Below are positions 1 to 15,910 of a stretch of 16,744 nucleotides of DNA, piece by piece. The position numbers and the translations under genes were made by a program. Source of the DNA: a virus. Taxonomy: Duplodnaviria > Heunggongvirae > Uroviricota > Caudoviricetes. Under the pieces are notes generated by a model, which was not told the origin of the DNA, did not search any database, and saw only the letters and a list, made by a program, of their open reading frames with translations. The stretch's first letter is position 1, and every line of letters begins with the position of its first letter. The stretch covers positions 1 through 16,744 of the IMG/VR virus record IMGVR_UViG_2617270976_000015; one strand, 5' to 3'.

Positions 1-276
1 TTACCGACTGCGGCCTGAGTTTTTTAAGTGACGTAAAATCGTGTTGAGGCCAACGCCCATAATGCGGGCTGTTGCCCGGCATCCAACGCCATTCATGGCC
101 ATATCAATGATTTTCTGGTGCGTACCGGGTTGAGAAGCGGTGTAAGTGAACTGCAGTTGCCATGTTTTACGGCAGTGAGAGCAGAGATAGCGCTGATGTC
201 CGGCGGTGCTTTTGCCGTTACGCACCACCCCGTCAGTAGCTGAACAGGAGGGACAGCTGATAGAAACAGAAGCCAC
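1..276 (-). CDS. insA: IS1 InsA (transposition regulator / N-terminal part of the InsAB transposase)
   Basis: The 91-aa translation [43 protein letters not shown]... matches IS1 InsA as I recall it; GTG start at 276, stop at 1-3. Confidence 0.9.
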
Positions 277-331
277 TGGAGCACCTCAAAAACACCATCA
301 TACACTAAATCAGTAAGTTGGCAGCATCACC
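1..331 (-). mobile_element. IS1 insertion sequence, partial (continues beyond the left edge of the window); terminal inverted repeat ends at 331
   Basis: Minus strand at 309-331 reads GGTGATGCTGCCAACTTACTGAT, the IS1 terminal repeat as I recall it; insA lies immediately inside. The element is cut by the window edge, so insB is not visible. Confidence 0.9.
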
Positions 332-1601
332 GGCTATCCAGTGCGGTAATGCGCTCCTGGTGCGATTCTGTATTCAGTCGCAGCGCGAGATCGTTACCCG
401 AAAGCTGATAAACATCTTCACCCGGTTCCAGCAAGGGTGACAGCCAGTGAGAAAGTTTTTGCTTGTATTGAATCCGCAGCATGATGCCATAGTTCTTAAC
501 CAGCATTTCCATGCCAGGGATGCGTAAATAACAAAGCGCAGACCAGGGGGCATCACGCAACGCGCGATTCAGGGCGCGAACATTTGGCAGATGAACCACC
601 GGGTCCACATACGCAAGCCGCTGAATGCGTCTGACTACCGCTCTCTGACGGGTTGCCAGTACAGCCATATAATTGACAATAAAAGAGAATACCAGATAAC
701 TGGAGGAGGTTATGGTCAGCTGCGTGGTATAGCCAGGATAAATGGGAATGTAATTTTGATAGCTGTGGATGCTGATCATCAACACGACCGCCCAGAGCAG
801 CGAAATCAGCTTATAACCATAGCGCATCGCTCCCCACATCATCAGGGGCAGCAATAATGACAAGGTATAATTGGTGCTAAAAATTGTGCTTTTTTCATTT
901 AACGGCATGCATAACAGCAACAATAAAGCACCTAATGCCAGTAGCCAGAGCGCGAACTCTTTTTTGGTGACTTTGGCATCAACCTGCTGTTTTAATTGCG
1001 AATAATAGCTACGTAAATAAAATGGATTTCGCACTACCCGAATGATGAAGTAGCACAGCGGGACACCGATCAGATTACCCACCAGTAAGGCCTGATAATT
1101 GATTAAAGTCCCGAGGTTAAAAGGCATGACACCGACCAGATTTTCTCTGCTCGCCAGTAATCCTACAAATGCAGCAAACTGGAAAAGTATCAGAAACAGC
1201 GTTGCAGGAAACACAATCTGCCAGAATATACGCTGGGAAATTAAACGGGTATCACCATGTGAAACGTTGTTACGCCGGGGAGTAAAGACCCTGTAACCGC
1301 CCCAACAGAGAATGATAATGATAATAAAATTAGCCGTTAATGATAGCGTTTCGTAAAAACCCAGCTCTGCATATTTGCGGACAAAAATCCCTAAGGCGAT
1401 CCCTGGCAATGCCGCCCAGCTGAAAAACATCATCATGCTGATCATCAGTGCCAGAGGCAGATAAAAGAGAAAAACCTCACCGGAAGAAATATGCGCGAAA
1501 GTATTAATGTGGGCGAAAATGGGCAAGATTAAAGAAGGCAGGAACAGCGGAAGCCCCCACCATTTATCACGTATTTTTATATAAGTTGCATTCAGTTTCA
1601 T
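327..1601 (-). pseudogene. pdeF: MASE1-type integral-membrane sensor fused to the start of a degenerate GGDEF domain (PdeF/YfgF-like c-di-GMP phosphodiesterase), 3' end truncated by the IS1 insertion
   Basis: 424-aa ORF with many predicted TM helices, then DPVVHLPNVRALNRAL, which resembles the start of a GGDEF domain. The reading frame runs across the IS1 junction at 331 and stops at a TGA inside the IS1 terminal repeat (327-329), so the distal GGDEF/EAL portion is missing. The pdeF name rests on domain order plus the neighbouring yfgG/H/I-like genes, from memory. Confidence 0.6.
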
Positions 1602-1952
1602 AGATGCTCAGCAGAATCCCCCACATCCTGAAGGAGGTGTATTCAGACAGGCATCCCACCTGACTTCGAATGATGATTATTCATCACTATAGAGAGCATT
1701 GATTCTAAGTGTCATATGAAAGTACCAATTGATATATATCAAACAAAATAACCCTGATTAATGAATTATTACGTTTATCATGTTAATTCATCATTATTAC
1801 ATCATCATTGTAAATAATTAAATTAACTTCCATAACATTAAAATATGTATCCACTGACGCTTTTTTACATAACGAAGAATTGACCATTTTGTCCTGTTGT
1901 GCCTTAATGTAAGTACCGTCCACAGCGTGGGACATACTTCAAGGAACCTTTT

Positions 1953-2144
1953 GTGAGTCAGGCAACCAGTATGCGAAAACGACACCGATTTAACAGTCGC
2001 ATGACCCGTATCGTACTGCTCATCAGCTTTATCTTCTTCTTTGGCCGTTTTATCTACTCGTCCGTCGGTGCCTGGCAGCACCATCAGAGCAAAAAAGAAG
2101 CTCAGCAATCCACACTCTCCGTCGAATCACCGGTACAACGTTAG
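1953..2144 (+). CDS. yfgG: small single-pass membrane protein (63 aa; YfgG-like)
   Basis: GTG start at 1953 with AAGGA 7 nt upstream (in-frame ATG at 1971). Basic N-terminus followed by hydrophobic helix IVLLISFIFFFGRFIY. Size and position next to the pdeF-like gene match my recollection of yfgG. Confidence 0.5.
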   Translation: MSQATSMRKRHRFNSRMTRIVLLISFIFFFGRFIYSSVGAWQHHQSKKEAQQSTLSVESPVQR

Positions 2145-2457
2145 CGGTTACCTTCTCCACTTTCACAGAACATAACGGCACTTCGCTGTCGGATGCTTTT
2201 GCTGTTTGGGATTATCAAAGCGGCAGATATTCTTTCATCTTAAATTTTACGTCTTTATCCTGACTGATGTTTATCCTGTTTGGCTGCGAAATAAATATAA
2301 AATTAATATATATGTTGTAATGATATATTTTTATAAATTATTCCCTGCGTGAATTTTAATAAATTTAATCTATCCCTTTATACGCAATACATTTACTTTC
2401 CTCTTTTGATGATCTTAAATGTCTTATTTTTCGTAATGTGTATAACAAGGAATAGTG

Positions 2458-2973
2458 ATGAAATTTAAAAAATGTCTTCTGCCTGTGGCAATGTTAGCGT
2501 CATTCACTCTGGCAGGATGCCAGTCAAATGCTGACGATCATGCTGCCGATGTTTATCAAACCGATCAACTGAATACCAAACAAGAAACTAAAACCGTTAA
2601 TATTATTTCCATTCTTCCCGCAAAAGTTGCCGTAGACAACTCCCAAAATAAACGGAACGCACAAGCCTTCGGCGCGCTTATTGGCGCAGTCGCTGGCGGT
2701 GTTATCGGCCACAACGTCGGGTCTGGCAGCAATTCCGGAACGACGGCAGGTGCAGTTGGCGGCGGAGCTGTAGGCGCGGCAGCGGGTTCTATGGTGAATG
2801 ATAAAACCTTAGTGGAAGGTGTTTCTTTAACCTATAAGGAAGGCACCAAAGTGTATACCTCTACCCAGGTGGGTAAAGAGTGCCAGTTTACGACAGGTTT
2901 AGCCGTTGTTATTACCACGACGTATAACGAAACGCGTATTCAGCCAAATACCAAATGTCCTGAAAAGAGCTAA
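2458..2973 (+). CDS. yfgH: glycine-zipper lipoprotein (YfgH-like; YcfJ paralogue type)
   Basis: ATG at 2458 with AAGGA 6 nt upstream (the track ORF begins at GTG 2455). Signal peptide with lipobox LAGC; Gly/Ala zipper GALIGAVAGGVIGHNVG...GAVGGGAVGAAAGS. Confidence 0.7.
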   Translation: MKFKKCLLPVAMLASFTLAGCQSNADDHAADVYQTDQLNTKQETKTVNIISILPAKVAVDNSQNKRNAQAFGALIGAVAGGVIGHNVGSGSNSGTTAGAVGGGAVGAAAGSMVNDKTLVEGVSLTYKEGTKVYTSTQVGKECQFTTGLAVVITTTYNETRIQPNTKCPEKS

Positions 2974-2988
2974 TAATCAGGAGGAGTC

Positions 2989-3528
2989 ATGAAGAAAGTT
3001 TTTCTTTGCGCCATCTTAGCCTCCTTAAGCTATCCGGCTATCGCCTCATCATTGCAGGATCAACTCTCTGCTGTCGCAGAAGCGGAACAGCAAGGTAAAA
3101 ATGAAGAGCAAAGGCAGCATGACGAATGGGTCGCGGAGCGCAACAGGGAAATCCAGCAAGAGAAGCAACGTCGCGCAAATGCCCAGGCCGCCGCTAACAA
3201 AAGAGCGGCAACGGCAGCGGCAAATAAGAAAGCTCGTCAGGATAAACTGGACGCCGAAGCCTCTGCGGACAAAAAACGCGATCAAAGTTATGAAGATGAG
3301 CTACGCAGCTTAGAGATTCAGAAACAAAAACTGGCGCTGGCGAAAGAAGAAGCCCGCGTTAAGCGAGAAAACGAATTTATCGATCAGGAACTGAAGCACA
3401 AAGCTGCGCAAACCGATGTGGTGCAATCTGAAGCTGACGCCAACAGAAATATGACTGAAGGCGGTCGCGATCTGATGAAAAGCGTGGGCAAAGCAGAAGA
3501 GAACAAATCGGACAGCTGGTTTAATTAA
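2989..3528 (+). CDS. yfgI: secreted charged coiled-coil protein (YfgI-like)
   Basis: Strong AGGAGG 4 nt upstream of ATG 2989; N-terminal signal peptide MKKVFLCAILASLSYPAIA; Glu/Lys/Ala/Gln-rich helical body. Gene symbol is from recollection of the K-12 yfgF-yfgI locus. Confidence 0.65.
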   Translation: MKKVFLCAILASLSYPAIASSLQDQLSAVAEAEQQGKNEEQRQHDEWVAERNREIQQEKQRRANAQAAANKRAATAAANKKARQDKLDAEASADKKRDQSYEDELRSLEIQKQKLALAKEEARVKRENEFIDQELKHKAAQTDVVQSEADANRNMTEGGRDLMKSVGKAEENKSDSWFN

Positions 3529-3566
3529 TCGATGTTAGTAACTTCAATCCTATAATTCTTGAAGAT

Positions 3567-3599
3567 AAAAAACCCTCTGTAGTAACAGAGGGTTTTGTT
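3567..3599. terminator. bidirectional rho-independent terminator at the host/prophage junction
   Basis: Perfect 8-bp stem CCCTCTGT (3573-3580) / ACAGAGGG (3585-3592) with 4-nt loop, flanked by an A-run (3567-3572) and TTTTGTT (3593-3599). Confidence 0.75.
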
Positions 3600-3745
3600 C
3601 ATTCATAGTGCAGGGTCAAATCATTCCCACTCAATTATTTACGATAACCATAACCAATTGAGTGATAACATTTTTCCAAATCTCAATTTTTCCCGTACCG
3701 TTTTATATACCGTCACCGGAAATCAGTACCGTGAAAAATGCCATG

Positions 3746-4228
3746 CTATCTGGTCAGGGTGTCGTACTGTTTTTCGCAGACTCTTCCGGCTTCGGATGCC
3801 CGGTCAGCATACTCTGCCAGTTGTCTATTTCTCTCGAGAGATTTGCTGAACACGTCGGAAAGCAAAACTCCGGTGTCTGCGGCTGACGACCCAGCGCCGA
3901 CAATGGCGTTATAGTGCCTGAGCTGCTCACGGATGGCAACGAGCTGTTGCTGCAACCGGCCAGCGCGAGCGGCAGCATCAAGAGCATCATTGCGCGCCTG
4001 GTCGATCCTCTGCTGCGCTTCACGTTCATTAGTCACTTTCTCCTGTTCGTAGTGCTGACGAACTATCTCATCTTCAGCTTTGCGGTCTTTCTTCGCCTGC
4101 GCATACCCGGCATCGTACTGACGACTGCCGTGTGCATTCCAGGCTACAACTCCTGATATGACCAGAACAGCAAGCATCGCCATGATAACCAACTGTTTCC
4201 AGTATGCTTTTGCGAATGCCCAGATCAT
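3746..4228 (-). CDS. Rz-like i-spanin
   Basis: N-terminal TM helix followed by a charged coiled-coil body; directly after the endolysin gene (start ATG overlaps the endolysin stop at 4225-4228); contains the embedded Rz1-like ORF. Confidence 0.7.
3754..4029 (-). CDS. Rz1-like o-spanin lipoprotein embedded in the +1 frame of Rz
   Basis: Track ORF lies entirely inside Rz in another frame; signal peptide with lipobox LALAGCS and a Pro/Ser-rich mature part. The true start may be the internal Met at about 3990. Confidence 0.6.
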   Translation of the reverse strand: MNVKRSRGSTRRAMMLLMLPLALAGCSNSSLPSVSSSGTITPLSALGRQPQTPEFCFPTCSANLSREIDNWQSMLTGHPKPEESAKNSTTP

Positions 4229-4854
4229 ACCGCCAGCACCTTACTGGCAGTGATGTACCGCGCGCGCCGGTCGTCGATGCCGTTCCGGCCACCATTGATA
4301 ATCAGAGTTACACGTGCAATATCGCCGGTATACTTCATGCATCCTTTGCTGGCGAAGAACCACGCCGCGCTACGAGCCGCATATTCGTCCTGCGCCAGCA
4401 GTTCAGGGCTCTCCAGCAGGTCAACCTTCAGGCCGTTTCCGCAATCACGATAGTTATTCAAACCGGTAATCTGGATAAGTCCGCGCCCTCGGTAATTCCA
4501 GCCATCACCAGGGGCATTGTTCCCCATGCGTTTGCTGTACACCAGATTGGCGATCGCACGCTGGCGCTCCAGAGGCAGAGACTTCTCATATGCTTTTCGT
4601 CCCAGCGTGCTGGCCTGGTCCGGCGTGATGCGTCCGGCACGGATAAACCCGGACAGTCCATTAACGCTGTAGTTGAAGTTTTCCTGTAACCGGGTAAATC
4701 CTCCGGACTCATGCCCGACCTGCGCGATAAACATCGCCTGGTCATCTGGTTTGATAATGCCAAACTCATTCATGGCAGCAGTGATATGCAGAAACCAGCG
4801 TGCGGCCAGCGCCTCGCTAATACCAGCAGCTCGCTGGAATTGTTTAATCTCCAT
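4225..4854 (-). CDS. endolysin, glycoside hydrolase family 19 (class I chitinase-like) type
   Basis: Start chosen at the internal ATG 4854 ([20 protein letters not shown]...) with GAGGT upstream; the longer track ORF (to 5019) would overlap the upstream gene. Motif [22 protein letters not shown] is recalled as the GH19 phage-lysin signature. Confidence 0.8.
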
Positions 4855-5152
4855 GTTTAGACCTCGATACTTTGAAAATTTGAACGACGTTACCGCGCGT
4901 TTTAATAACCGCAGCGAGCATGACAGCGTTGATAATGACCTCAGATAAATCCACAGCCATTGGCGTGCGTAACCAGATTGCATAGGCGACACGAACAGGA
5001 ATACTGGCCGCAGCAACAATCAGGAAATAAGCAAGCCACCCTCCCCATCTTCGGTGTTGTGACCCGTTACGCCGGAATGTGACAACGCGAATTGCTATGC
5101 CAGTACAAATAACTGCATTGGTGATAAGAAAAAAAAGCTCATACGTTGCCAT
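4844..5152 (-). CDS. holin-like / lysis-associated membrane protein (about 3 TM)
   Basis: 102-aa hydrophobic protein; GGGAGA RBS; start overlaps the upstream holin stop and its stop overlaps the endolysin start (translational coupling typical of lysis cassettes). Confidence 0.55.
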
Positions 5153-5543
5153 CGTCTTTTCTCCCCGGAATTAACTCACGTGGATTATCGGAACGGTGAT
5201 AGAGCCAGATGCCAATTCGTACTGCGACGATTGCTGACACGAATGCGCCAGCAGAGAAAACAACCCCTTTCTCGAAAGAGTCCTGCGTGATAGTAGGGAT
5301 CAGGCTAGCTACGCCTATAAGAATTGATGCTGCTGGTTTGTAGAAAAGAAGCCCACAGAGAAAGCTAAGCATCGACAAGAGTACGCGACGACTAATTGGG
5401 TACTCCACCGCAGAGGTAACAAAAATCACCGCTCCTGACAAAGACCCCAACGCTACTTCTGGAGGTACTCCTGCTATCACCGCAGCTAGAGAACCAAGAC
5501 TAAGCCATTGATTTAATGTTTCACTGGTTAGTTGAACTGACAT
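5139..5543 (-). CDS. holin-like membrane protein with possible dual start (GTG 5552 / ATG 5543)
   Basis: 3-4 predicted TM helices; first gene of the lysis cassette; N-terminus M-V-S-M gives two in-frame starts as in dual-start holin/antiholin genes; GGTGG upstream of ATG 5543. Confidence 0.6.
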   Translation of the reverse strand: MSVQLTSETLNQWLSLGSLAAVIAGVPPEVALGSLSGAVIFVTSAVEYPISRRVLLSMLSFLCGLLFYKPAASILIGVASLIPTITQDSFEKGVVFSAGAFVSAIVAVRIGIWLYHRSDNPRELIPGRKDDGNV

Positions 5544-5958
5544 AGAAACCACCGTTTACTGTGCATAAAGACCCACCTTAGTTGGTGAGTCCATCATACA
5601 CAATTAATACATATATGGTTTAATTGAAATCCCCAAAAACATTCTGAATAGGTGAGGTGTTTTCTGGCTCCATAGCTATGACGTGGCTTTTGATGCCTAA
5701 CTTTATAAGGTGCCACGACAATGTGATAGGTACATAGGATTCAGTTACCAATGCAAAGCTTTGTGTGTCTCAGTTTTGTCTCATGCCAACCCAGTAGAAT
5801 CAATCTACTTAATCTCTCTGCAGTGAATATTTTGTTTGCACGCAATTGCACATGATGAACTGGCGCTTATGATAATTTCTGACGGTGATCTGATGGGAGT
5901 GAAAGTGCGGCTATCTGATGATACAATGCTCTTCAAAATAAACAGTTAGGTGATTTTT

Positions 5959-7002
5959 ATGTTGGTCAAAGATGCGCTAAAAAGGGATAACAATAACCTT
6001 GACTTAATACGTATTTTTTGTGCAATTTCTGTAATATTTGCCCATTCATATTATCTTGCAAATTCTGATGGAGCCCAGGAGCCGGTTCAGTCTGTTTTCA
6101 CATTTACATATACTGGTTCCATTGCTGTAAAAATATTTTTCTTTATTAGCGGAATGCTTGTAACTAATAGTTTATTAACAACGCGAAACATACCACACTT
6201 TATTTCATCTAGATTTTTTAGAATATTCCCCGCATTCATTTTTGTTTTATTATTCGCGACATTCATTGTTGGACCATTACTTACAACGCATTCAATGACA
6301 TCTTATTTAAAAGATACGCTGACGTACAGCTATCTATTTAAAAGCTCATATTTGGATATGCAATTTTTTCTTCCTGGTGTTTTTGAGGAAAATATATATA
6401 AAAGCTCAGTTAATGGTTCTTTATGGACAATACCATATGAAGTTGCATCTTATGTCGTGCTCCTAGCATGCTACATGATAACTCAGAGCAGAGGAAGAAT
6501 AATGCCTAGCATCATATGCTTATCAATAATAGCGCTTCCAGTATTGGGATGGAACAAATTAATTTTTATAAATAACGATAATGCAGATGTGTTTTTAATG
6601 GCTCCATGCTTTGCTCTTGGCGCATTGTATGCTATAAACAAGGACAAAATATACATTTCACTACATGCACCAATAGGATTTGCAATATTATATAATTTTG
6701 TGTCAGAACCAACACTCAAGCATATGCTTTTTTATTTTTGCGCATGTACATTTTTCGTATATTTATCAACAACAAAAATAATAAAATCAATAAGAATAAA
6801 ACATGATGTATCATATGGCGTTTACTTGTGGGGCTTTTTAATACAGCAGATAACATTCAGGTTATTACCTGATATAAATCTGTACTTAAATCAAGTTTTA
6901 TGCATAGCACTATCACTTATTGCTGGACTGATATCATTTATTGCGATAGAAAAACCAGCAATGGATATTGGGAAAAAGATATCAAACAAATTCAGATATT
7001 AG
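5959..7002 (+). CDS. acyltransferase family 3 integral membrane protein (Oac/OafA-like O-antigen acetyltransferase, membrane domain only)
   Basis: ATG 5959 with AGGTGA 7 nt upstream (track ORF starts at GTG 5950). About 10 TM helices; N-terminal RIFCAISVIFAHS resembles the conserved Arg/His motif of AT3 acyltransferases. Extremely AT-rich codon usage, which looks horizontally acquired. Confidence 0.75.
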   Translation: MLVKDALKRDNNNLDLIRIFCAISVIFAHSYYLANSDGAQEPVQSVFTFTYTGSIAVKIFFFISGMLVTNSLLTTRNIPHFISSRFFRIFPAFIFVLLFATFIVGPLLTTHSMTSYLKDTLTYSYLFKSSYLDMQFFLPGVFEENIYKSSVNGSLWTIPYEVASYVVLLACYMITQSRGRIMPSIICLSIIALPVLGWNKLIFINNDNADVFLMAPCFALGALYAINKDKIYISLHAPIGFAILYNFVSEPTLKHMLFYFCACTFFVYLSTTKIIKSIRIKHDVSYGVYLWGFLIQQITFRLLPDINLYLNQVLCIALSLIAGLISFIAIEKPAMDIGKKISNKFRY

Positions 7003-7004
7003 AT

Positions 7005-7030
7005 AAAAAGGGGCTTTCAGCCCCTTTTTT
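7005..7030. terminator. bidirectional rho-independent terminator between the convergent acyltransferase and beta-helix genes
   Basis: AAAAAGGGGCT-TTC-AGCCCCTTTTTTTT: GC stem 7010-7015 / 7019-7024 flanked by an A-run and a T-run. Confidence 0.8.
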
Positions 7031-8014
7031 TTACGTGGTAGTTGCGGATACCTTCCATTCACCAGTTGATACGTATGTCCACTTCCACGGTCCGGTAGAA
7101 ACCGGACCAAGCAATTCCCACTTGGTGCCAAACGGGAAATTAGTTGTATCTCCCGTGGGTGGTGATACTGATAGAACCGTTATATATCCTGACTCAAGTC
7201 TGCATAATGCAGTCCATGATGAGTTTCCGGTTATACTATAGGTGCCGCCTGAATCAACCTTGTTGATCCAGCTCTGCCCACTCCCCCATCTAATAGAATC
7301 AGTGGTGTTGTCGGGAATTACCGCACCATTAAAATTTGCAGTTGCATCATTAAGATATATGTATTTGCTAGATGAGACTCCAGAGTAACCAGAAAAATGA
7401 GATGAAACCAATGAGATGAAACACGATTCCAGAGATACAGCTTCAACTCCTCCATCATGATGATTAACCACTCTAAATGCAGTTACGTTAATTCGACTAC
7501 CATTTATATCAAATATTTTACCAGTGCCTTCTTCGCTTCCGCATCCAGATAGATTTACTCCAGTACAATCTTTAAATTTATAGCCAGTACCATTAACGAA
7601 GTCAGCAGCCAAACAAGTCAGGCTGCTATATGTAATGTTATTAAAATCATATGCAACACCTGAACATGTTTTCACATAAATATTCTTTAAATTATATGTG
7701 GTTCCACCTGCTTCGATTTTAACTCCAGTAACGACATCCTGAATAGTAATGTTTTCCCATGTCTGCAACCAGCTATCACTAGTGCGATAACCGGTTTTCA
7801 CCCTATGAATATACAGGTCCTGAAGGCGCACATTGTAACTGATAGCGCTATATATCCCGTAATCACAAGGATTGGGCGCAGTATTTAGAATACTCAATCC
7901 AATTATTCTGGTGCTTCTTGTTTGTTTCCCGCTTAAATCACCTGATGTGTCACTATCCATATCTACCGCAACAATAAAGTCTTTGGAGAAGCTGTGTGGT
8001 ACACCCTGCCACAT
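7031..8014 (-). CDS. right-handed beta-helix (pectate-lyase-fold) protein resembling a tailspike/depolymerase receptor-binding domain; possibly a remnant
   Basis: Ser/Thr/Gly/Asn-rich sequence with repetitive short beta-strand motifs (for example NLKNIYVKTCSGVAYDFNNITYSS, GTGKIFDINGSRINV). No signal peptide, weak RBS; its frame is open for only 17 codons upstream of the Met and overlaps the upstream ORF. Confidence 0.45.
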   Translation of the reverse strand: MWQGVPHSFSKDFIVAVDMDSDTSGDLSGKQTRSTRIIGLSILNTAPNPCDYGIYSAISYNVRLQDLYIHRVKTGYRTSDSWLQTWENITIQDVVTGVKIEAGGTTYNLKNIYVKTCSGVAYDFNNITYSSLTCLAADFVNGTGYKFKDCTGVNLSGCGSEEGTGKIFDINGSRINVTAFRVVNHHDGGVEAVSLESCFISLVSSHFSGYSGVSSSKYIYLNDATANFNGAVIPDNTTDSIRWGSGQSWINKVDSGGTYSITGNSSWTALCRLESGYITVLSVSPPTGDTTNFPFGTKWELLGPVSTGPWKWTYVSTGEWKVSATTT

Positions 8015-8382
8015 GCGATCCGGAACGGTTTTAATATCGTTACGCGCTGTTTTGCAGCATCCAGTTCAATCGACAATTTTTCCAACTGCTCTTTATGCTT
8101 TTTATATTCCTGATATGCGTGCCAGGACTGACCTTTGCGCACACTATCAGTAATATCAGTAATCTGTTCTGGTGTTAGCGTGGTCAGTGGCTGTGCTGGG
8201 AAAATCAGCACTTTCCCGGAATCCCAATCAAAACCAGCGTGAATTGACTGAACCTCAACTGAGGGTGTTGAACCAATGCTGCCAGGCGAATAAACAACGA
8301 TCGTTACATCCATATCGCGACGATGGCTGTGGTTGTTGGACAAAATACGATTCACCAACTCAGAAAATTTGGAGAATTTCAT
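7963..8382 (-). CDS. hypothetical phage protein (139 aa) with C-terminal coiled-coil; may be the N-terminal part of a frameshifted tailspike-like gene
   Basis: ORF with ATG at 8382; 52-nt overlap in a different frame with the beta-helix ORF. No motif I recognise. Confidence 0.4.
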   Translation of the reverse strand: MKFSKFSELVNRILSNNHSHRRDMDVTIVVYSPGSIGSTPSVEVQSIHAGFDWDSGKVLIFPAQPLTTLTPEQITDITDSVRKGQSWHAYQEYKKHKEQLEKLSIELDAAKQRVTILKPFRIACGRVYHTASPKTLLLR

Positions 8383-8390
8383 GCGGAGCC

Positions 8391-8801
8391 TCAGTATGTA
8401 AAATAGACAGTTGCCACGCCGTTATAGTGATCAAACGATACGGCATTTACTTCATAGCTGGCGGGGAGCTTCGATCCGAGAACGTATCCGGGCCACTTTT
8501 TCCATGGAATTTCTCTGCGCTCACTATCGCCATATACCGTACATCCCAGTGAGCCTACAGCTTCACCAGAACGTGTGCCGCACGTTATGAATCCAAGATT
8601 TTGCTTACTGGCCTTAATAGCGATCGATGGAGTACTAACCGATGCATTGGCTGCTCTATTCGCCTGTTGGCTTGCAATAGCTGCGGAATTAGCAGCTGCA
8701 ACAGCAGCAGTGGTCGCGGCGGTAGAGGCAACAATAGCTGCTGAAGCATGCACTTGTTGGATATTCACCAACAATGCCGCCACAAAAATCATCTTCTTCA
8801 C
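8391..8801 (-). CDS. secreted protein of unknown function (signal peptide, Ala-rich linker, C-terminal domain with two Cys)
   Basis: GTG start at 8801 with AAGGAG 7 nt upstream, overlapping the upstream stop (GTGA). N-terminus MKKMIFVAALLVNIQQVHA looks like a Sec signal peptide. Confidence 0.55.
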   Translation of the reverse strand: MKKMIFVAALLVNIQQVHASAAIVASTAATTAAVAAANSAAIASQQANRAANASVSTPSIAIKASKQNLGFITCGTRSGEAVGSLGCTVYGDSERREIPWKKWPGYVLGSKLPASYEVNAVSFDHYNGVATVYFTY

Positions 8802-9442
8802 TTGTCAGCTCCTTTGCGAATCTGTTCCGCCCATTCTTCAAGGGATTTCTCCGCATATTCACCGGACAGGCCATCAATCGGGTGCGGTTCATTAGCCAAC
8901 TCTTCTTTCGCTGACAGAATCATGCGCGTAACGTCGAAAACTTCACGTAAAGACTTATTGATAAATCCGTGATTGAACGCAGCAGCAAGACGGCTTGCGG
9001 TATAGTTAATCCCCTCGTTGCGAGCCTCCGCCCGAATTTCAGCCGTGAAGGCGTCGGTTGCTGACATAGACAGTGCTGATTTAGCATCAAACATGAGCGA
9101 CGCTGCGGGATTGATTGACTTCTCCTCTGGAGAAATACCGCTCATTGCAAATTGGTTTATCATGCGTTCAACCACTTCACGCAATGCCGCATTCTCCGCC
9201 GCCAGCGCCGAAAACTTCTCGTGTGCCAACTTAACAGCTGCATCAGCCTGCTTAATTGACTCAATCGCTTTCTGCTGGTCTTCGGCCATCGCATTAGCAC
9301 GCACCAGTTGCACTTCCAGTTGCGTTGCCAAATCGCTGATCAGCTTTGCCACACTGCGCATATCAACGGCACCACATTCTGCTTTCAGTTCCGAAGCCAT
9401 CTCATGCCCGGCGGCAACTAACCCTTTGATATTACTTTCCAT
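8798..9442 (-). CDS. hypothetical cytoplasmic helical protein (214 aa), nin-position gene
   Basis: ATG 9442 with GAGGG RBS; predicted helical with Ala/Glu/Lys-rich coiled-coil-like segments; no Cys-rich zinc-finger as in lambda Q. Confidence 0.5.
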   Translation of the reverse strand: MESNIKGLVAAGHEMASELKAECGAVDMRSVAKLISDLATQLEVQLVRANAMAEDQQKAIESIKQADAAVKLAHEKFSALAAENAALREVVERMINQFAMSGISPEEKSINPAASLMFDAKSALSMSATDAFTAEIRAEARNEGINYTASRLAAAFNHGFINKSLREVFDVTRMILSAKEELANEPHPIDGLSGEYAEKSLEEWAEQIRKGADK

Positions 9443-9503
9443 CTTTACCCTCGCTTATCCACATAACTTATTGATTGCATTGATAACTAAAAAGATCGTC
9501 GAT

Positions 9504-9848
9504 TCAGAACTCTTCGATGTTCCAGCCACCACCTGCTTTCTTTGGTTTAACCGTTACCCCGATGATTCGGAACGGATACTGATCTGCGGCGACTTTGGTT
9601 TTCACCCTGGCGTCGTCGGTCCAGAAACCTTTCACTTCGTGCAGTTCCATCTCGCCGGTGGCGAGCATCACAGCAAAATCGGGCGTATAGAACGTGTTGT
9701 CAGCTAACCGCAGCTTGATACCCTCAAATCGATACCAGACGATTTCTCCTGCACGTTTACGCAACTCAAGGTGCTGGCAATACGCAGATTCTGTTTTGTT
9801 CATCTGGCCTGTTTTGAGTCGACCAAGAGCCTGTATCTGTTTTCTCAT
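9504..9848 (-). CDS. small PD-(D/E)XK-motif protein (DUF1064-like), putative nuclease
   Basis: ATG 9848; motifs YTPDFAV and ELHEVKG fit a PD...(D/E)xK nuclease core; position just after the replication genes. Family name is from memory. Confidence 0.5.
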   Translation of the reverse strand: MRKQIQALGRLKTGQMNKTESAYCQHLELRKRAGEIVWYRFEGIKLRLADNTFYTPDFAVMLATGEMELHEVKGFWTDDARVKTKVAADQYPFRIIGVTVKPKKAGGGWNIEEF

Positions 9849-9851
9849 AAT

Positions 9852-9929
9852 TTACCCCTGAGGTAATTAAAAACCACATAAGACACGAAATCAATATGGT
9901 TTAGAATATTTTGTTACCCAGCAGGTAAC
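9852..9929 (-). promoter_or_regulatory. operator-promoter-operator unit: two TTACC-N5-GGTAA palindromes (9852-9866, 9913-9929) flanking a leftward -35 TTGATT / -10 TTTAAT
   Basis: Both palindromes match the operator consensus found at the repressor gene perfectly; their centres are 62 bp apart, the same spacing as the pL-like pair at 12957-13033. The -35/-10 reading is approximate. Confidence 0.5.
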
Positions 9930-9965
9930 TATCAAGGCGTAAAAAAATGCGCTATCGCGCTGGTA

Positions 9966-10766
9966 TTACTTGATAAATCCTGCCGCCTTTCCCCGCCTGT
10001 ATTCCTCCATCAGCCACTGTGCCGGTGTTATTCCCCCCAATGTGGCGGCGTTAGGCATACACCCGAAACTTCGCCCTGGTGGATGGTAAACGTCTCTCCC
10101 TGTGTCCGGAGGCGTACTCATGGGTTCTGGCTTTGCCTGTATGCTGATCACCGGATCGGGTATCTGCTGTCCGGAAGCTACCTTTTTCGCCCAATCATCG
10201 AGCAGCCTGCGCGCGTGTTTCTCAACCTCAATCTCGCTAAACTGGCGCTGATACATTGCACGGCGGGTATCACATACGACCCAGTACATAACCGGATGTC
10301 GCCACGGGAATCTTTCGGGACCACCAGGATATAAACTTTTTTCCTTGCTGTACCGGTGAAACTCCGCCATCACATCGTCAATGGTGACGCCAAGAACCAT
10401 CTTGCTGTCTTTACACCACTTGATGAATTGCCCTGGCGACGGCCAGAACGGAGATTCACTGGCGCGGGCGTGGCGCATACCAGCAGAAACCTGTTCACGG
10501 GTTCGGATCCCCCCTTCGGCAAACGCAGCAATCCACTGCTGTTTTGCAGCAACTTCCTGCTCTGGAGTCTTCAGGTTGGTTACTACTGCCGCCGGAAACA
10601 GTTGTTTCAGCTGTTTGAAAAGGGCATCAACAAGCCTCTCTGCTGACATGTTCACCACATTGTCATTGTTGACGTACTGATGCTCATAACCTGACATGCG
10701 AGAAAGGGCTTCTCCGTCACGGTTTTGTATCGCGGTAAAAACGTTGTTCACAAGAAATCCTCCCAC
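9966..10766 (-). CDS. lambda P-like replication protein (DnaB helicase loader)
   Basis: Conserved block WIAAFAEGGIRTREQVSAGMRHARASESPFWPSPGQFIKWC parallels lambda P (…NGITTMEQVNAGMRVARRQNRPFLPSPGQFVAWC) as I recall it. Start taken as the GTG at 10766, overlapping the O-like stop; the start is uncertain. Confidence 0.8.
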   Translation of the reverse strand: MGGFLVNNVFTAIQNRDGEALSRMSGYEHQYVNNDNVVNMSAERLVDALFKQLKQLFPAAVVTNLKTPEQEVAAKQQWIAAFAEGGIRTREQVSAGMRHARASESPFWPSPGQFIKWCKDSKMVLGVTIDDVMAEFHRYSKEKSLYPGGPERFPWRHPVMYWVVCDTRRAMYQRQFSEIEVEKHARRLLDDWAKKVASGQQIPDPVISIQAKPEPMSTPPDTGRDVYHPPGRSFGCMPNAATLGGITPAQWLMEEYRRGKAAGFIK

Positions 10767-11563
10767 GCTTCAGGGCTGTTCCAGTGCGGAACGTTGTTAT
10801 CAGGTAATGTTGATTGCTTCTGTCTGCTAATCTGCAGCCGCCTTGCCAGCTTCTGCTCCCACTGTGCCTGATGGTATGCCTTACCCTCAGCCATCCAGTA
10901 AATTCTGAACTCTGCAAGCTCCTGTGCCGTTGGCAGACTGTCCAGGTAGATCCCCTGCAATGAGCTTTTCCGAAGAAAGTCATCTGATGGCTGCCATTGT
11001 TCATGCATGACAAATTTGCCTAATTGCCCTGGCCCACCAGGAGGAACAAAGTTATTCATCACGGCGTTGTTTGCGCCGGGGTCATGAGGCACAGAATCCC
11101 CGCTTTTTGTCCTGCTCTCCCTCTCTTGGTTAAATGACTGGTTATATGACTGGTTCTGGATCCCGTTTTTGGGATCATTCAACATCCCGTTTTTGGGATC
11201 ATTCAACATCCCGTTTTTGGGTATATTCCCGTTTTCGGTAACATTACCGTTTTCGGGTTCATTACCCCCTTCCCGGTTGCCTTTAATGTTTCCGTTTTTG
11301 GTTATATTAAGAGAGAAAACCCGCACTCTTTTCGTCGCACCCTTTCTCTCTCCGGTATCTGAAATAAGCCCCATTTTCATGAGCGATATAAGCCCGGCCT
11401 GCACGGTTTTTTTATTCAGGCAAGTGTCTTTAACGAGGCGTTCTATGCTGGGGTAGCAGAGGTTATATTCATCGGCTCTGTCAGCCATCGAGAGCAGTAT
11501 GAGCTTTAATGACGAGCTACCTGGATCTGTCTCCCAGGCCCAATCTGTTGCATGTCTGCTCAT
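10748..11563 (-). CDS. lambda O-like replication initiator (N-terminal HTH domain, internal repeat/iteron-encoding linker, C-terminal domain)
   Basis: ATG 11563 with GGAG RBS; N-terminal LKLILLSMADRADEYNLCYPSIERLVKDTCLNKKTVQAGLISLMKMGLI looks like a helix-turn-helix; the mid-gene tandem repeats encode NGMLNDPKNGMLNDPKNG; placed directly before the P-like gene. Confidence 0.7.
   Translation of the reverse strand: MSRHATDWAWETDPGSSSLKLILLSMADRADEYNLCYPSIERLVKDTCLNKKTVQAGLISLMKMGLISDTGERKGATKRVRVFSLNITKNGNIKGNREGGNEPENGNVTENGNIPKNGMLNDPKNGMLNDPKNGIQNQSYNQSFNQERESRTKSGDSVPHDPGANNAVMNNFVPPGGPGQLGKFVMHEQWQPSDDFLRKSSLQGIYLDSLPTAQELAEFRIYWMAEGKAYHQAQWEQKLARRLQISRQKQSTLPDNNVPHWNSPEAWEDFL
11161..11308. 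repeat. array of about 7 direct repeats (18-24 bp, core CCGTTTT(T)GG) inside the O-like gene; candidate replication-origin iterons
   Basis: Two perfect 24-bp units TCCCGTTTTTGGGATCATTCAACA at 11161-11184 and 11185-11208, then degenerate units to about 11308; a 10-bp direct repeat ATGACTGGTT x2 follows at 11133-11154. Confidence 0.65.
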
Positions 11564-11578
11564 GATTAATCTCCGCTA

Positions 11579-11779
11579 TCAGCTTGAATGTTGTGGGGAG
11601 GAATTAATCATGATCTGCTTAATCTCTGCCCTGATGCGACGGTTTGATTCCATAGTGCACTCAACACAGTGTCCGTTGTAAACCCAGCGTTCACTGTCAT
11701 GTCCGTGCTTACATGGTTTTCCGGTGTAGTAGCGTTTAAGTCCGCGCTTTGCGGCATCAATACGTGTAATAATTTCCAT
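11579..11779 (-). CDS. small zinc-ribbon-like protein at the cII position
   Basis: Cys/His cluster GKPCKHGHDSERWVYNGHCVEC; stop is 15 nt upstream of the O-like start. Start ambiguous: ATG 11779 chosen; the track ORF extends to a TTG at 11842. Confidence 0.4.
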   Translation of the reverse strand: MEIITRIDAAKRGLKRYYTGKPCKHGHDSERWVYNGHCVECTMESNRRIRAEIKQIMINSSPQHSS

Positions 11780-11888
11780 GGTAAGCCCTGTTATTAGTAT
11801 TGGGATTACGGTCATTTTGTGCTGACACAAAAAAAAGATCAACCAGATTTGGTTTTTTATTACCTTTGAGGTACGAATAGATATGAAA

Positions 11889-11908
11889 AGACCGCCGGAT
11901 GGCGGTCT
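11889..11908 (-). terminator. GC-rich hairpin after the cro-like gene (tR1-position terminator candidate)
   Basis: Perfect 8-bp stem AGACCGCC / GGCGGTCT with a 4-nt loop, 22 nt after the cro-like stop; followed on the minus strand by UUUCAUAUCUAUU, a weak U-tract. Confidence 0.4.
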
Positions 11909-11929
11909 ACAGAGGGTTGTGGATGGATA

Positions 11930-12160
11930 TCATGAGTAGAAGAAGTATGCCAGTTCTGCTTTTGAGCGCAGCCATTGTCTTGTTTTACAGGCTTTAAAAA
12001 GCCCATTCATCAATACTTTACCTGGCATTTTGCGCTTACCTGTTAAGTGAGTCTGGATATAATGACTCGTCGTTCCGGCTTCCTGTGCGAAGGCTTCACG
12101 CTCATCCGGAGTAAGTGCAAGCCAGTGCTTTTTGAAATCGAAATGTCCGTTATCGCTCAT
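11930..12160 (-). CDS. Cro-like small HTH regulator
   Basis: 76-aa protein divergent from the repressor gene across a 154-bp operator region; segment EAFAQEAGTTSHYIQTHLTGKRK resembles the Cro/CI-type HTH pattern; first gene of the cro - cII-position - O - P series. Confidence 0.5.
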   Translation of the reverse strand: MSDNGHFDFKKHWLALTPDEREAFAQEAGTTSHYIQTHLTGKRKMPGKVLMNGLFKACKTRQWLRSKAELAYFFYS

Positions 12161-12314
12161 AGCTATTGCCTGATATTTATTTCAGATAATAAATATTCAC
12201 CCATAAGGTAACAAAAATCAAGGATAGTTACCTGTGGGGTGCATTTACCTATTGGGTAATATTGCTTTAAATTGAATCATCTACTGATTCATATATGAGG
12301 CGATTTTCCAGAAA
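12161..12314. promoter_or_regulatory. divergent promoter/operator region (OR-like) between the cro-like and repressor genes
   Basis: Contains TCACC-cataa-GGTAA (12197-12211), half-site GTTACC (12227-12232) and perfect TTACC-tattg-GGTAA (12245-12259); AT-rich promoter-like sequence on both strands. Confidence 0.6.
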
Positions 12315-12899
12315 ATGAAAAGTATCCAGGACGTCCGCAGGCAAAATCTCAACGACTTGATCGACCGTGAATTCAATGGTGTTCAGACGCGGATGGCTGA
12401 AAAACTTGGAACTCAGGCAAATCTGGTAAACCGCTGGGCTCTTGGCAAGAAGGTTATCGGCGACCAGGTTGCGCGAAAAATTGAAGCTGCCGCCAATAAA
12501 CCCCGTAACTGGCTTGATATCGATCGCTCGCTTTCTCAGGAAGGTTTTCAGCCTGTCGGCCCAAGCGACATTGGTCAGCTGGCGGCTCACAACCTGGAAC
12601 GCTGGATGAGCGAAAGCCGCGACCTTTCAACACAGGGAAAACTTCACCGCGCATCCGGCGTCGCCCAGGTGACAATCAGCCGCCTGTTAAACAATGAGGT
12701 CAGCGTTTCCATTTCCACCCTGGAGAATGTTGCATCTGCATTCGGGCGTCACGGATATGAACTACTGATTCACCCGCACGACCCTGCAACTATCAACTAT
12801 GACCGCTCGCGCTACGCATTGTTACCTGAAACCGAGAAAGCAAAGATCGAAAGTTACATTGAATTTGTCATCAACCAGAACGAAAAAAACAAACAATAA
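12315..12899 (+). CDS. prophage repressor (CI-like function), HTH protein without a recognisable S24 autopeptidase domain
   Basis: N-terminal HTH-like segment GVQTRMAEKLGTQANLVNRWALGKK and a second HTH-like segment ASGVAQVTISRLLNNEVSVSISTLENVASAF; divergent from the cro-like gene; flanked by the palindromic operators; I do not see the Ser/Lys motifs of LexA/CI-type C-terminal domains. Confidence 0.65.
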   Translation: MKSIQDVRRQNLNDLIDREFNGVQTRMAEKLGTQANLVNRWALGKKVIGDQVARKIEAAANKPRNWLDIDRSLSQEGFQPVGPSDIGQLAAHNLERWMSESRDLSTQGKLHRASGVAQVTISRLLNNEVSVSISTLENVASAFGRHGYELLIHPHDPATINYDRSRYALLPETEKAKIESYIEFVINQNEKNKQ

Positions 12900-12919
12900 A
12901 ATAATACTTTTCAGTAAGT

Positions 12920-12943
12920 AAGCCGCCTTCTGGTGGCTTTTTT
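12920..12943 (+). terminator. rho-independent terminator after the repressor gene
   Basis: Stem AAGCCGCC / GGTGGCTT (one G-U pair) with loop TTCT, followed by TTTTTT. Confidence 0.65.
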
Positions 12944-12956
12944 ATTGCCTATACTA

Positions 12957-13033
12957 TTACCTAATGGGTAATTTTTTTAACTCATATCTATTGACACCAA
13001 ACCAAATACGCATAATTATTACCTCAACGGTAA
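12957..13033 (+). promoter_or_regulatory. pL-like early promoter flanked by two operators (TTACC-taatg-GGTAA 12957-12971; TTACC-tcaac-GGTAA 13019-13033), -35 TTGACA at 12991-12996
   Basis: Two perfect 15-bp palindromes 62 bp apart bracketing a consensus -35 hexamer and an AT-rich -10 region, directly upstream of the first early ORF (13053). Confidence 0.6.
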
Positions 13034-13052
13034 CAGACCGAGGTAACAAGTT

Positions 13053-13205
13053 ATGCAGTGGAAAATCATCAACGGTTGGTACTGCGTTACTGCATGCGGA
13101 TTCATGAGCTGGAAGTTCCGCACCTTACAGGAAGGCATTAAGTGGGCTTTCGTCAGCAAAGAAGCTCGCGATGTGGCCAACGATAACGAGATATGGGAGG
13201 GCTGA
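13053..13205 (+). CDS. small Trp-rich protein (50 aa), first gene of the pL-like operon
   Basis: Not in the ORF track (under 60 aa). ATG 13053 with GAGGT 8 nt upstream; stop TGA immediately precedes the next gene's ATG; translation MQWKIINGWYCVTACGFMSWKFRTLQEGIKWAFVSKEARDVANDNEIWEG. Confidence 0.45.
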   Translation: MQWKIINGWYCVTACGFMSWKFRTLQEGIKWAFVSKEARDVANDNEIWEG

Positions 13206-13207
13206 TA

Positions 13208-13507
13208 ATGAACGTTAATCAGCAGAAAAATCTTCAAAAAATCATGCTGGTATTCGACAAGGACTACCGCCTGTCAGAACAGCTATATGACCGACAAGTT
13301 GAACTGATTGAGAGCATCCGACTTCATCAAATGTCCTCAACTTTTGACGCTGTAACAGGCAAAGGAGTTCGCCAGGAAGTGCTGGAGGCAGCTAAAGACA
13401 GCCCTGAGTTCGAAGAACTTATGGATGCCTACCGGCGCGAGGCAATGGCAATTATCGCCCGCTGGGATCTGGCGGATCAGCTTGATGGACAGAGGGACGC
13501 GGCATGA
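13208..13507 (+). CDS. hypothetical early protein (about 99 aa) in the position occupied by gam in lambda
   Basis: ATG 13208 with GGGAGG 8 nt upstream (track ORF starts at 13193); acidic helical protein; stop overlaps the start of the exonuclease gene (ATGA). Confidence 0.5.
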   Translation: MNVNQQKNLQKIMLVFDKDYRLSEQLYDRQVELIESIRLHQMSSTFDAVTGKGVRQEVLEAAKDSPEFEELMDAYRREAMAIIARWDLADQLDGQRDAA

Positions 13508-14325
13508 ATCCGGGAATTTATTTCGATATCAGCAACGAAGACTACCACGCCGGTGACGGCGTGAGTAAGTCGCAACTGGACATGGTTGCCAAGAATCCGG
13601 CGCTTCTTAAATGGGTTCAGGCAGCACCAGAAGACGAAGAGAAAAAGTCTGCACTGGCTATGGGAACCGCATTGCACTGTCTGCTTCTGGAGCCTGGAGA
13701 GTTCGACAAACGCTTCATTGTTTCACCGAAATTCGATCGTCGGACGAAACAAGGTAAAGCTGACGAAGAGGCATTTCTTCGTGATGTGGCGGATATGGGG
13801 ATTACGGTACTTGATGCCGAGCAGTGGCGGAAACTGGAGCTGATGCGTGATAGCGCAATAGCTCATCCGGCGGCACGCTGGATGTTGGAAGCACCTGGTT
13901 ACTGCGAAGCATCAATGTACTGGAACGATGAAGAGACGGGTGAGTTGTGCCGAATTCGTCCAGACAAATGGCTGAACGAGCACAACGTGATCGTCGACGT
14001 GAAAAAGGTTGCAGATATTGACCGTTTTGCACGCCACATCGAGGAATTCCGCTACCACGTGCAGGACGCAATGTACCGCGAAGGCGCAATGAGGGTTACT
14101 GGTCAGCCGCATGGTTTTTTCTTTCTTGCCGTGAGCGAAAGCATTGATTGTGGTCGGTATCCGGTACGCGTGTTCGAGCTGGATGCGCCAGATGTCGATG
14201 CCGGGCACGCTCTGTTCCGCCGGGATCTGAATACCTATCACGAATGCCGCATCAACGATGAATGGGGCGGAGTGGAAATTATTAAACGCCCTGACTGGGC
14301 ACGTAAACAGGATATGTACGTATGA
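13504..14325 (+). CDS. PD-(D/E)XK-family recombination exonuclease (exonuclease VIII-like / DUF3799-type), partner of the annealing protein
   Basis: Motif region RIRPDKW...IVDVKK fits a D...(D/E)xK nuclease core; translationally coupled to the downstream Bet/RecT-like gene. Does not resemble lambda Exo as I recall it. Confidence 0.6.
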   Translation: MNPGIYFDISNEDYHAGDGVSKSQLDMVAKNPALLKWVQAAPEDEEKKSALAMGTALHCLLLEPGEFDKRFIVSPKFDRRTKQGKADEEAFLRDVADMGITVLDAEQWRKLELMRDSAIAHPAARWMLEAPGYCEASMYWNDEETGELCRIRPDKWLNEHNVIVDVKKVADIDRFARHIEEFRYHVQDAMYREGAMRVTGQPHGFFFLAVSESIDCGRYPVRVFELDAPDVDAGHALFRRDLNTYHECRINDEWGGVEIIKRPDWARKQDMYV

Positions 14326-15203
14326 GCAATGATATCGCAATCACATCACAACCAGGCGCAACTGTAGGCACTGCTGCGGCAATATTCAGCCCCGAGGGCA
14401 TGAATCAACTGGTTCGTTTCGCGGAGTTGATGTCACAAAGCAAAGCGACTGTACCGAAACATCTTGAAGGCAAACCTGCCGATTGTCTGGCGGTGACCAT
14501 GCAGGCGGCACAGTGGGGAATGAACCCTTTCGCCGTGGCGCAGAAAACGCATGTGGTAAACGGAACGTTAGGCTACGAAGCACAGTTGGTAAACGCGGTC
14601 GTATCCTCTTCCAGCCTGCTAGCGACACGCCTGAATTATCGCTGGAGCGGTGACTGGTCGAATGTTAACGGCAAAACAGATAAATCACCGAATCTGACGG
14701 TAACTGTGTCAGCAGTTCTTAAAGGAGAAGCAGAACCCCGTGAGCTTACCATCAGTATGGCGCAAGCCGGAGTGCGTAACTCTCCATTGTGGGAACAGGA
14801 TCCGCGTCAGCAACTTGCCTATCTTTGCACGAAACGATGGGCTCGCCTGCACGCTCCTGATGTACTTCTCGGTGTTTACACACCAGACGAATTACAGGAA
14901 ACGGCACCGCGCGTTGAGCGAGACATTACTCCGCAAACGACCACTGCTGCGGGAATGAACAGTCTGATCAACGCTAAACCAGCGAAAAAGCCTGATGAGC
15001 AAACGCGTAAAGCGGATAGCCGTGATCCAGAAGAAATGCTGATGGCCTTTACCAGCGCAGCGATGAATTACAGCACTGTCTCCGAACTGGATAAGGCTTA
15101 CAAATACATTGCACAAAAACTTTCAGATGATGACGAACTGCTGGCAAAAGCCACCGACGTTTACAGCGTTCGTCGGGAAGAATTAAACGAAACATCTATG
15201 TAA
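14322..15203 (+). CDS. single-strand annealing protein of the Bet/RecT (Red-beta) family
   Basis: Segments ADCLAVTMQAAQWGMNPF and ETAPRVERDITPQTT parallel lambda Bet (DAQFIALLIVANQYGLNPW, TAERQPERDITPVNDET) as I recall it. Confidence 0.75.
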   Translation: MSNDIAITSQPGATVGTAAAIFSPEGMNQLVRFAELMSQSKATVPKHLEGKPADCLAVTMQAAQWGMNPFAVAQKTHVVNGTLGYEAQLVNAVVSSSSLLATRLNYRWSGDWSNVNGKTDKSPNLTVTVSAVLKGEAEPRELTISMAQAGVRNSPLWEQDPRQQLAYLCTKRWARLHAPDVLLGVYTPDELQETAPRVERDITPQTTTAAGMNSLINAKPAKKPDEQTRKADSRDPEEMLMAFTSAAMNYSTVSELDKAYKYIAQKLSDDDELLAKATDVYSVRREELNETSM

Positions 15204-15252
15204 CCACCACCGCGGCGCCACGCGCGCCGCACTGCAACCAAGAGAGGTATTT

Positions 15253-15501
15253 ATGAAAGGTGCATTAGGTAAGAAGGAACTCCTGGCGGTGGTGCCACTG
15301 TCATGGAGCACTATCGACCGTATGGAGCGCGCAGGGGAATTTCCTAAACGCTGGTATATCACCGATAAACGCTGCGCATGGAACCGTGATGAAGTTGAGC
15401 GTTGGCTTGATGAACGTCAGGCAGCAAGCCCGGCAGAGTTCCAGGGTAAAAAACCTCCTGTTCAGCAACGTGTATATCGTCCCGTGAGCAACGCGGCATG
15501 A
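15253..15501 (+). CDS. AlpA-family HTH DNA-binding protein (prophage regulatory / excisionase-like)
   Basis: 82 aa; pattern LSWSTIDRMERAGEFPKRWYITDKRCAWNRDEVERWL matches the AlpA/Xis-type winged-helix signature (STIYR...G.FP......W...EV..W); AGAGAGG RBS. Confidence 0.65.
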   Translation: MKGALGKKELLAVVPLSWSTIDRMERAGEFPKRWYITDKRCAWNRDEVERWLDERQAASPAEFQGKKPPVQQRVYRPVSNAA

Positions 15502-15610
15502 GTGTGCTGCTAAGGCACTGGAGCAAATGGTCAGGATGGTACTTATTCCTGGCCTCTGTTTCAGCATGGCTTTATCTGCTGGCATTAATTTTCAGAGAGG
15601 GTTGGATTAA

Positions 15611-15910
15611 GTGAGAAAGTTAAGCCGACTTGAAAAATATCACATGAACAAGGTTTCAATGCGCAGTCCGTCAAAGATTGTCGCCGTTACTCCTGCGGCG
15701 ATAGAGATCGAAAAACGCGCGATTGAAAGAGAGAAAAAAGGGCAGTTCCGCATTGCCGCTCACCTTTGGCTTCAGTGTATGGATGTTGCTTCTGGTGATG
15801 TTGAGCGTGCAAGGATCGCGGTTCGCAGGGACCAATGTATCACAAAAGGTAACGGCCTTCGCCGTGGCGACTATAGCGGCATAGGATGTTGTGGGGTGGT
15901 TTATGACTAA
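15611..15910 (+). CDS. PerC-like small transcriptional regulator (start uncertain: GTG 15611, ATG 15644 or ATG 15659)
   Basis: Core RIAAHLWLQCMDVASGDVERARIAVRRDQC resembles the PerC-family pattern; recollection-based. Confidence 0.4.
   Translation: MRKLSRLEKYHMNKVSMRSPSKIVAVTPAAIEIEKRAIEREKKGQFRIAAHLWLQCMDVASGDVERARIAVRRDQCITKGNGLRRGDYSGIGCCGVVYD

Follow-up and report, generated by a model that had tools for sequence, protein, structure and literature searches.

Disruption of the c-di-GMP phosphodiesterase gene pdeF by IS1 in Escherichia coli 2-316-03_S4_C2

The stretch of DNA analysed here (IMG/VR record IMGVR_UViG_2617270976_000015, 16,744 nt, hereafter the window) opens inside an insertion sequence, and the reading frame of a membrane sensor protein runs directly into the end of that element. 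Which gene is interrupted, by what event, and which of its activities would be lost? A preliminary description, made from the sequence alone, took the frame to belong to a pdeF/yfgF-like c-di-GMP signalling gene that enters an IS1 terminal repeat and stops at a TGA within it. We find the junction of this 424-aa frame to be correct to the base and the gene to be pdeF itself, on the strength of a perfect match to K-12 and conserved synteny with yfgG-yfgH-yfgI. In the reading that we hold with high confidence, IS1 transposed into the chromosomal pdeF gene of the phylogroup-A, ST10 strain E. coli 2-316-03_S4_C2, between nt 1270 and 1271 of the gene and in the orientation of the gene.

The junction of pdeF with IS1

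At 100% identity, the window matches contig JNQT01000014.1 of the NCBI assembly GCA_000704325.1 of E. coli 2-316-03_S4_C2, and likewise a contig of the Logan assembly of SRR1186598. The strain has been tabulated as phylogroup A, ONT:H10, ST10 and aatA/aap-positive (PMC8923075), and the phylogroup A/ST10 assignment fits the K-12-identical flanks (3304/3304 nt over window 332-3635). Read on the minus strand, window 1601 to 332 equals nt 1-1270 of K-12 MG1655 pdeF without a mismatch (1270/1270, 100% identity). Divergence from K-12 pdeF starts precisely at nt 1271; the breakpoint that was to be sought by alignment to full-length PdeF is thereby fixed between window positions 331 and 332. The element stands in the same orientation as pdeF, and the frame crosses from one into the other: codon 424 is a hybrid CGG, made of the final pdeF base and the first two bases of IS1, which replaces His with Arg and is followed by TGA. 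The resulting open reading frame (327-1601, minus strand) encodes PdeF residues 1-423 plus Arg, cutting a protein of 747 aa at 57% of its full length (Table 1).

Table 1. Features of the window, in order of position
Feature	Window position	Strand	Basis or remark
IS1, left (IRL-proximal) 331 nt	1-331	(-)	element entered at the insA stop codon, where the window starts
insA, complete, 91 aa	1-276	(-)	Pfam Zn_ribbon_InsA PF03811, E=1.3e-21; HTH_Tnp_IS1 PF12759, E=4.7e-31
IS1 left terminal inverted repeat, 23-mer GGTGATGCTGCCAACTTACTGAT	309-331	(-)	read directly
TGA stop	327-329	(-)	nt 3-5 of IS1, within its terminal repeat
pdeF (yfgF) nt 1-1270	332-1601	(-)	PdeF residues 1-423 and first base of codon 424
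Predicted 9-bp target-site copy, TGGATAGCC in pdeF sense	332-340	(-)	expected from IS1 behaviour, if the insertion was simple
Degenerate GGDEF-like domain, cut: residues 330-423 of ~330-466	333-614	(-)	BLASTP mapping to PdeR
SGNDL motif, residues 401-405, retained	387-401	(-)	inside the GGDEF-like domain
MASE1 membrane sensor domain, complete, residues 15-320	642-1559	(-)	Pfam E=1.1e-71, profile 1-299 of 299
Lys-Lys-Glu motif, residues 213-215, retained	957-965	(-)	inside MASE1
pdeF promoter, intact	1702-1742	(-)	FNR box TTGATATATATCAA at 1729-1742; -10 TAGAAT at 1702-1707
50-aa ORF between pdeF and yfgG, in AT-rich sequence	1783-1935	(-)	RefSeq hypothetical protein WP_000017552.1; no domain on record
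17-bp overlap of K-12 and phage homology, AATCATTCCCACTCAAT	3619-3635		looks like an att core
phiV10-like (epsilon15-type) prophage	3619-16744		72% coverage and 94.5% identity to Escherichia phage phiV10
Prophage lysis cassette	~3746-5552	(-)	two holins, GH19 endolysin, DUF2514 Rz-like gene
Acyl_transf_3 gene	~5950-7002	(+)	possibly an O-antigen acetylase
327-aa ORF	7031-8014	(-)	candidate for what related prophages list as 'tail fiber domain-containing protein'

IS1 is an element of about 768 bp in which the insB'/DDE transposase follows insA via a -1 frameshift, and its insertion duplicates 8-9 bp of the target. The 331 nt seen here differ at one position (99.7% identity) from a copy in E. 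coli C21, listed in RefSeq as 'IS1-like element IS1A family transposase', and their InsA has a zinc ribbon at its N-terminus and an HTH at its C-terminus. The 23-mer at the pdeF boundary also bounds the annotated IS1 copies of C21 and of E. coli ET82, and the parent contig runs 171 nt further into the element, reaching the start of the DDE_Tnp_IS1 reading frame. With the IS1A-type elements of E. coli and Shigella it thus shares the terminal repeat, a complete insA with both domains and the start of the DDE frame; it differs from known IS1 in extent, with only the left 331 nt within the window and 502 nt in total on the contig.

The junction is reproduced base for base in the NCBI and Logan assemblies, which come from different assemblers yet may go back to one common read set. 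Since it falls exactly at the terminal nucleotide of IS1 and is identical in both, chance or misassembly is very unlikely as its source. A chimera formed at the repeat, with pdeF intact in the organism, might be entertained for a contig that terminates within a multicopy element and for two assemblies of possibly shared origin. However, the break coincides with the outermost base of the IS1 inverted repeat, which is where transposition would put it, and two different assemblers arrive at it; moreover, two separate pdeF halves are annotated for this assembly and no intact copy was found for it, and closed genomes show IS1 elsewhere in pdeF. We therefore regard a chimera as extremely improbable. 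The nt 1270 junction itself is absent from the 5426 complete E. coli genomes searched, and the lone match at 100% coverage among them, in ET82, proved to be an IS1 at another pdeF position.

If IS1 inserted in the simple way, the far side should read ATCAATAAGTTGGAGTCATTACC (the IS1 IRR), then TGGATAGCC (the 9-bp duplication), then ATCTCAAGCAATTTCG (pdeF nt 1271 onward) and then ppx. Both the NCBI and the Logan contig end inside IS1, as is usual for draft contigs at multicopy repeats. The displaced 3' portion, which the preliminary description proposed to look for outside the window, was found in the same assembly: KDY19002.1, a 311-aa 'EAL domain protein', equals PdeF 437-747 residue for residue. 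The genome of 2-316-03_S4_C2 therefore still contains the 3' half of pdeF (codons 437-747 at least) elsewhere, which fits a simple insertion, with up to 38 nt of pdeF sequence (nt 1271-1308) possibly missing. The 424-aa product is likewise on record for this strain, as KDY19668.1, 'MASE1 family protein'. Contig look-up with 311-aa and 313-aa C-terminal fragments returned only the frameshift, nonsense or other IS alleles of other strains, and an exact look-up of ten edge-truncated products, predicted for 8- and 9-bp duplications, found none of them in the collection.

An IS1-mediated rearrangement, whether by deletion next to the element or by inversion or translocation between two copies of IS1, would leave the 3' half somewhere other than directly behind this element. 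The contigs end in IS1, so the junction on its far side lies outside them, and the halves of the gene fall on separate contigs, their protein accessions differing by 666. Moreover, the sequence past the pdeF IS1 of ET82 does not resume where pdeF should, which suggests that sequence next to the element was deleted in that strain, and IS1-associated deletions do occur at this gene. Against this, draft contigs always break at multicopy IS1, so a simple insertion also predicts separate contigs, and given the reading frame identical to PdeF 437-747 in the same assembly, no more than those 38 nt could be missing. We consider a rearrangement quite unlikely; in either event the functional outcome is equal, as contiguous pdeF is lost.

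Domains of PdeF and the surrounding locus

Intact K-12 PdeF (YfgF, b2503; 747 aa) carries Pfam MASE1 at residues 15-320 and EAL at 498-730 (E=5.7e-71). Compared with it, the allele described here is identical in the first 1270 nt, in the promoter and in yfgG-yfgH-yfgI, and lacks residues 424-747. As the preliminary description had anticipated, the catalytic C-terminal part is lost: the whole EAL domain, the sole catalytic part of the protein, is gone, including the EIL motif at 526 and DDFGTGY at 646. Pfam finds MASE1 as the single domain of the 424-aa product, which has zero EAL matches and matches zero NCBIfam phosphodiesterase models (intact PdeF matches 15 NCBIfam models, none of which reaches its curated cut-off). 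Because the EAL domain is absent from this product, the locus is a disrupted pdeF allele and not a functional member of the PdeF/YfgF family. A naturally short isoform was considered and rejected; among the cluster members that were read and are not labelled partial, the length is 747 aa, with the exception of a 692-aa E. marmotae protein and a mislabelled 589-aa Shigella entry. Orthologues ending naturally near residue 424, or a failure of the protein to align to MASE1-GGDEF-EAL proteins, would have spoken against a truncation; neither was seen.

The region between MASE1 and EAL deserves a finer account. The earlier statement that the product holds the membrane domain and only the start of a GGDEF-like domain stands for the former, with MASE1 complete, but understates the latter: 94 of about 137 GGDEF-like residues are kept, about two-thirds of the domain and including the SGNDL motif, and the last third is gone. 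We set the bounds of this domain by BLASTP, in which PdeF 317-734 aligns to PdeR 224-648 in one stretch (E=7e-32), so that the Pfam GGDEF domain of PdeR (237-390) maps to PdeF 330-466; NCBIfam GGDEF-EAL models align to PdeF from residue ~287-317. The Pfam GGDEF model itself gives no score on intact PdeF, nor on residues 319-508 alone even at E<=10, and a PDB sequence search gave non-significant matches only, the best relevant one being MorA (E=1.1). SGNDL in place of GGDEF in PdeF has been tabulated twice (PMC3484386 and PMC11327459), and YfgF has been reported to combine an inactive GGDEF domain with an EAL domain that is an active phosphodiesterase (PMC3718329). Because PdeF has a degenerate GGDEF-like domain without catalytic function (PMC3718329), the activity lost would be that of a phosphodiesterase and not of a cyclase.

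Upstream, the locus is undisturbed. The promoter, of the class II FNR-dependent type, has elements that fit the published E. coli yfgF promoter (PMC3718329) in a region 100% identical to K-12; expression from the FNR-dependent yfgF promoter was found to be maximal without oxygen (PMC3718329). The conserved yfgG-yfgH-yfgI block is likewise 100% identical to K-12. The intergenic region between pdeF and yfgG also holds a 50-aa reading frame. On the other side, the transcription unit ends with pdeF and ppx runs convergently, so the insertion should leave downstream genes unaffected.

Given the intact promoter and start codon, and a complete MASE1 domain with the required Lys-Lys-Glu motif, the allele could be one that separates functions: the MASE1 stump would be made, inserted into the membrane and retain a c-di-GMP-independent dampening of aspartate chemotaxis, with only the phosphodiesterase lost. 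The MASE1 effect has been found to be independent of phosphodiesterase activity, and the E. coli YfgF acts as its Salmonella counterpart does (PMC3718329). That effect, however, has been shown only for the over-expressed full-length protein and depended on its continuous expression from a plasmid in the presence of oxygen (PMC3718329), and a GGDEF-like domain cut at two-thirds likely misfolds, which would mark the stump for degradation. Retention of this function is accordingly unlikely in our estimate.

Beyond yfgI, a phiV10-like prophage stands where K-12 has guaA. Homology to K-12 reaches 3635, 15 nt into the 3' end of guaA, and phage homology begins at 3619; the overlap of 17 bp looks like an att core, which places the integration of the prophage at the guaA 3' end. 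The lysis cassette adjoins this attachment site, and the acyltransferase gene lies beside the 327-aa reading frame.

pdeF disruption in other E. coli genomes

Across the complete E. coli genomes, 49 of 5426 carry an IS1 of the same orientation in or beside pdeF, and their differing match spans imply many distinct IS1 positions. Many of the 49 are clonal, and a group of pig and pork isolates has one common site. Several other complete genomes have an IS3 in pdeF; in the laboratory strain XL10-Gold, an IS1 lies beside the gene. Two strains with IS1 in pdeF in the same orientation illustrate sites that differ from that of the window. C21 shows a clean 9-bp duplication, AACGGCTAA, at nt 264-272, and ET82 has its element at nt 1679, an IS1 that differs from that of the window at 17 of 331 positions and is thus a different variant. 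In both strains, the pdeF parts flanking IS1 are annotated by RefSeq as pseudogene fragments.

Other public assemblies carry further kinds of pdeF lesion, namely W432* (TGG to TGA; loci L013, L016 and L017), Q415* (L007), 1-nt indels (L006, L009 and L010) and a 14-nt gap (L008). In two more, the start of the contig is not pdeF sequence, which then begins at nt 231 (L018) or nt 1302 (L021); these contig starts are presumably the ends of other IS elements. C-terminal fragments of PdeF form a cluster of 758 distinct members. In Shigella and pathogenic E. coli, genes of c-di-GMP turnover have been reported to be cut by IS elements or premature stops, with the fragments sometimes expressed (PMC11327459). 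The pdeF of S. flexneri 2457T (S2699) is tabulated there without a mutation note (PMC11327459), whereas here the disrupted gene belongs to a commensal or EAEC-like ST10 strain.

These numbers do not single out pdeF as an IS1 hotspot. At about 12 chromosomal IS1 matches to a genome, and for a target of 2.2 kb in a genome taken as 5 Mb, random insertion predicts ~29 genomes, the same order of magnitude as the 49 observed. We find no evidence of a hotspot, or of selection at pdeF, that would raise the rate above that of random IS1 insertion into a dispensable gene. A more adventurous proposal is a natural domain split: an FNR-driven MASE1 module would stay in the membrane with its c-di-GMP-independent effect on aspartate taxis, a free cytoplasmic EAL fragment might arise whose phosphodiesterase is uncoupled from MASE1 sensing, and recurrent pdeF disruption would be a selected rewiring and not neutral decay. 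The EAL fragment might then start at ATG codon 435 or 437, by low-level read-out from IS1, and the recurrent alleles of gut E. coli (IS1, IS3, W432*, Q415*) would reflect selection. We rate this proposal as very improbable.

Expected consequences for c-di-GMP signalling

In the favoured reading of an IS1 transposition into pdeF, translation from the intact FNR-dependent promoter and the native start would end at residue 423 plus Arg, and the 3' half would sit beyond IS1, with a 9-bp target duplication in between. Polarity is a classical trait of IS1 insertions, so the downstream EAL fragment is probably expressed at a low level. Because the sole catalytic activity of PdeF resides in the EAL domain, we infer from the sequence that 2-316-03_S4_C2 would be without PdeF c-di-GMP phosphodiesterase activity.

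Studies of yfgF mutants indicate what such a loss could look like. Deletion of yfgF in CFT073 raised adherence to bladder cells, an effect reversed by an exogenous phosphodiesterase (PMC3484386), and lowered biofilm in no-salt LB (PMC3484386). In APEC with yfgF repressed, c-di-GMP, biofilm and adhesion went up, and H2O2 resistance went down (PMC12419081). The published effects are modest and strain-dependent, and the biofilm phenotypes are inconsistent between strains. For 2-316-03_S4_C2, we would expect a modest rise in c-di-GMP-dependent traits such as adherence and biofilm, together with lower peroxide resistance, mainly under the anaerobic or microaerobic conditions in which pdeF is expressed. 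The phenotype may even be negligible, because E. coli has many other phosphodiesterases.

The event is an ordinary IS1 pseudogenisation of a well-characterised, dispensable signalling gene, of a kind that recurs in the pdeF of other E. coli strains, and it has little importance beyond the annotation of the strain. The allele is already in GenBank, annotated there as two unrelated proteins; KDY19668.1 and KDY19002.1 are to be read as one IS1-disrupted pseudogene, and work on c-di-GMP, biofilm or adherence should treat 2-316-03_S4_C2 as PdeF-deficient. More broadly, pdeF gathers independent null mutations across many E. coli lineages, in keeping with the plasticity known for the set of c-di-GMP enzymes.
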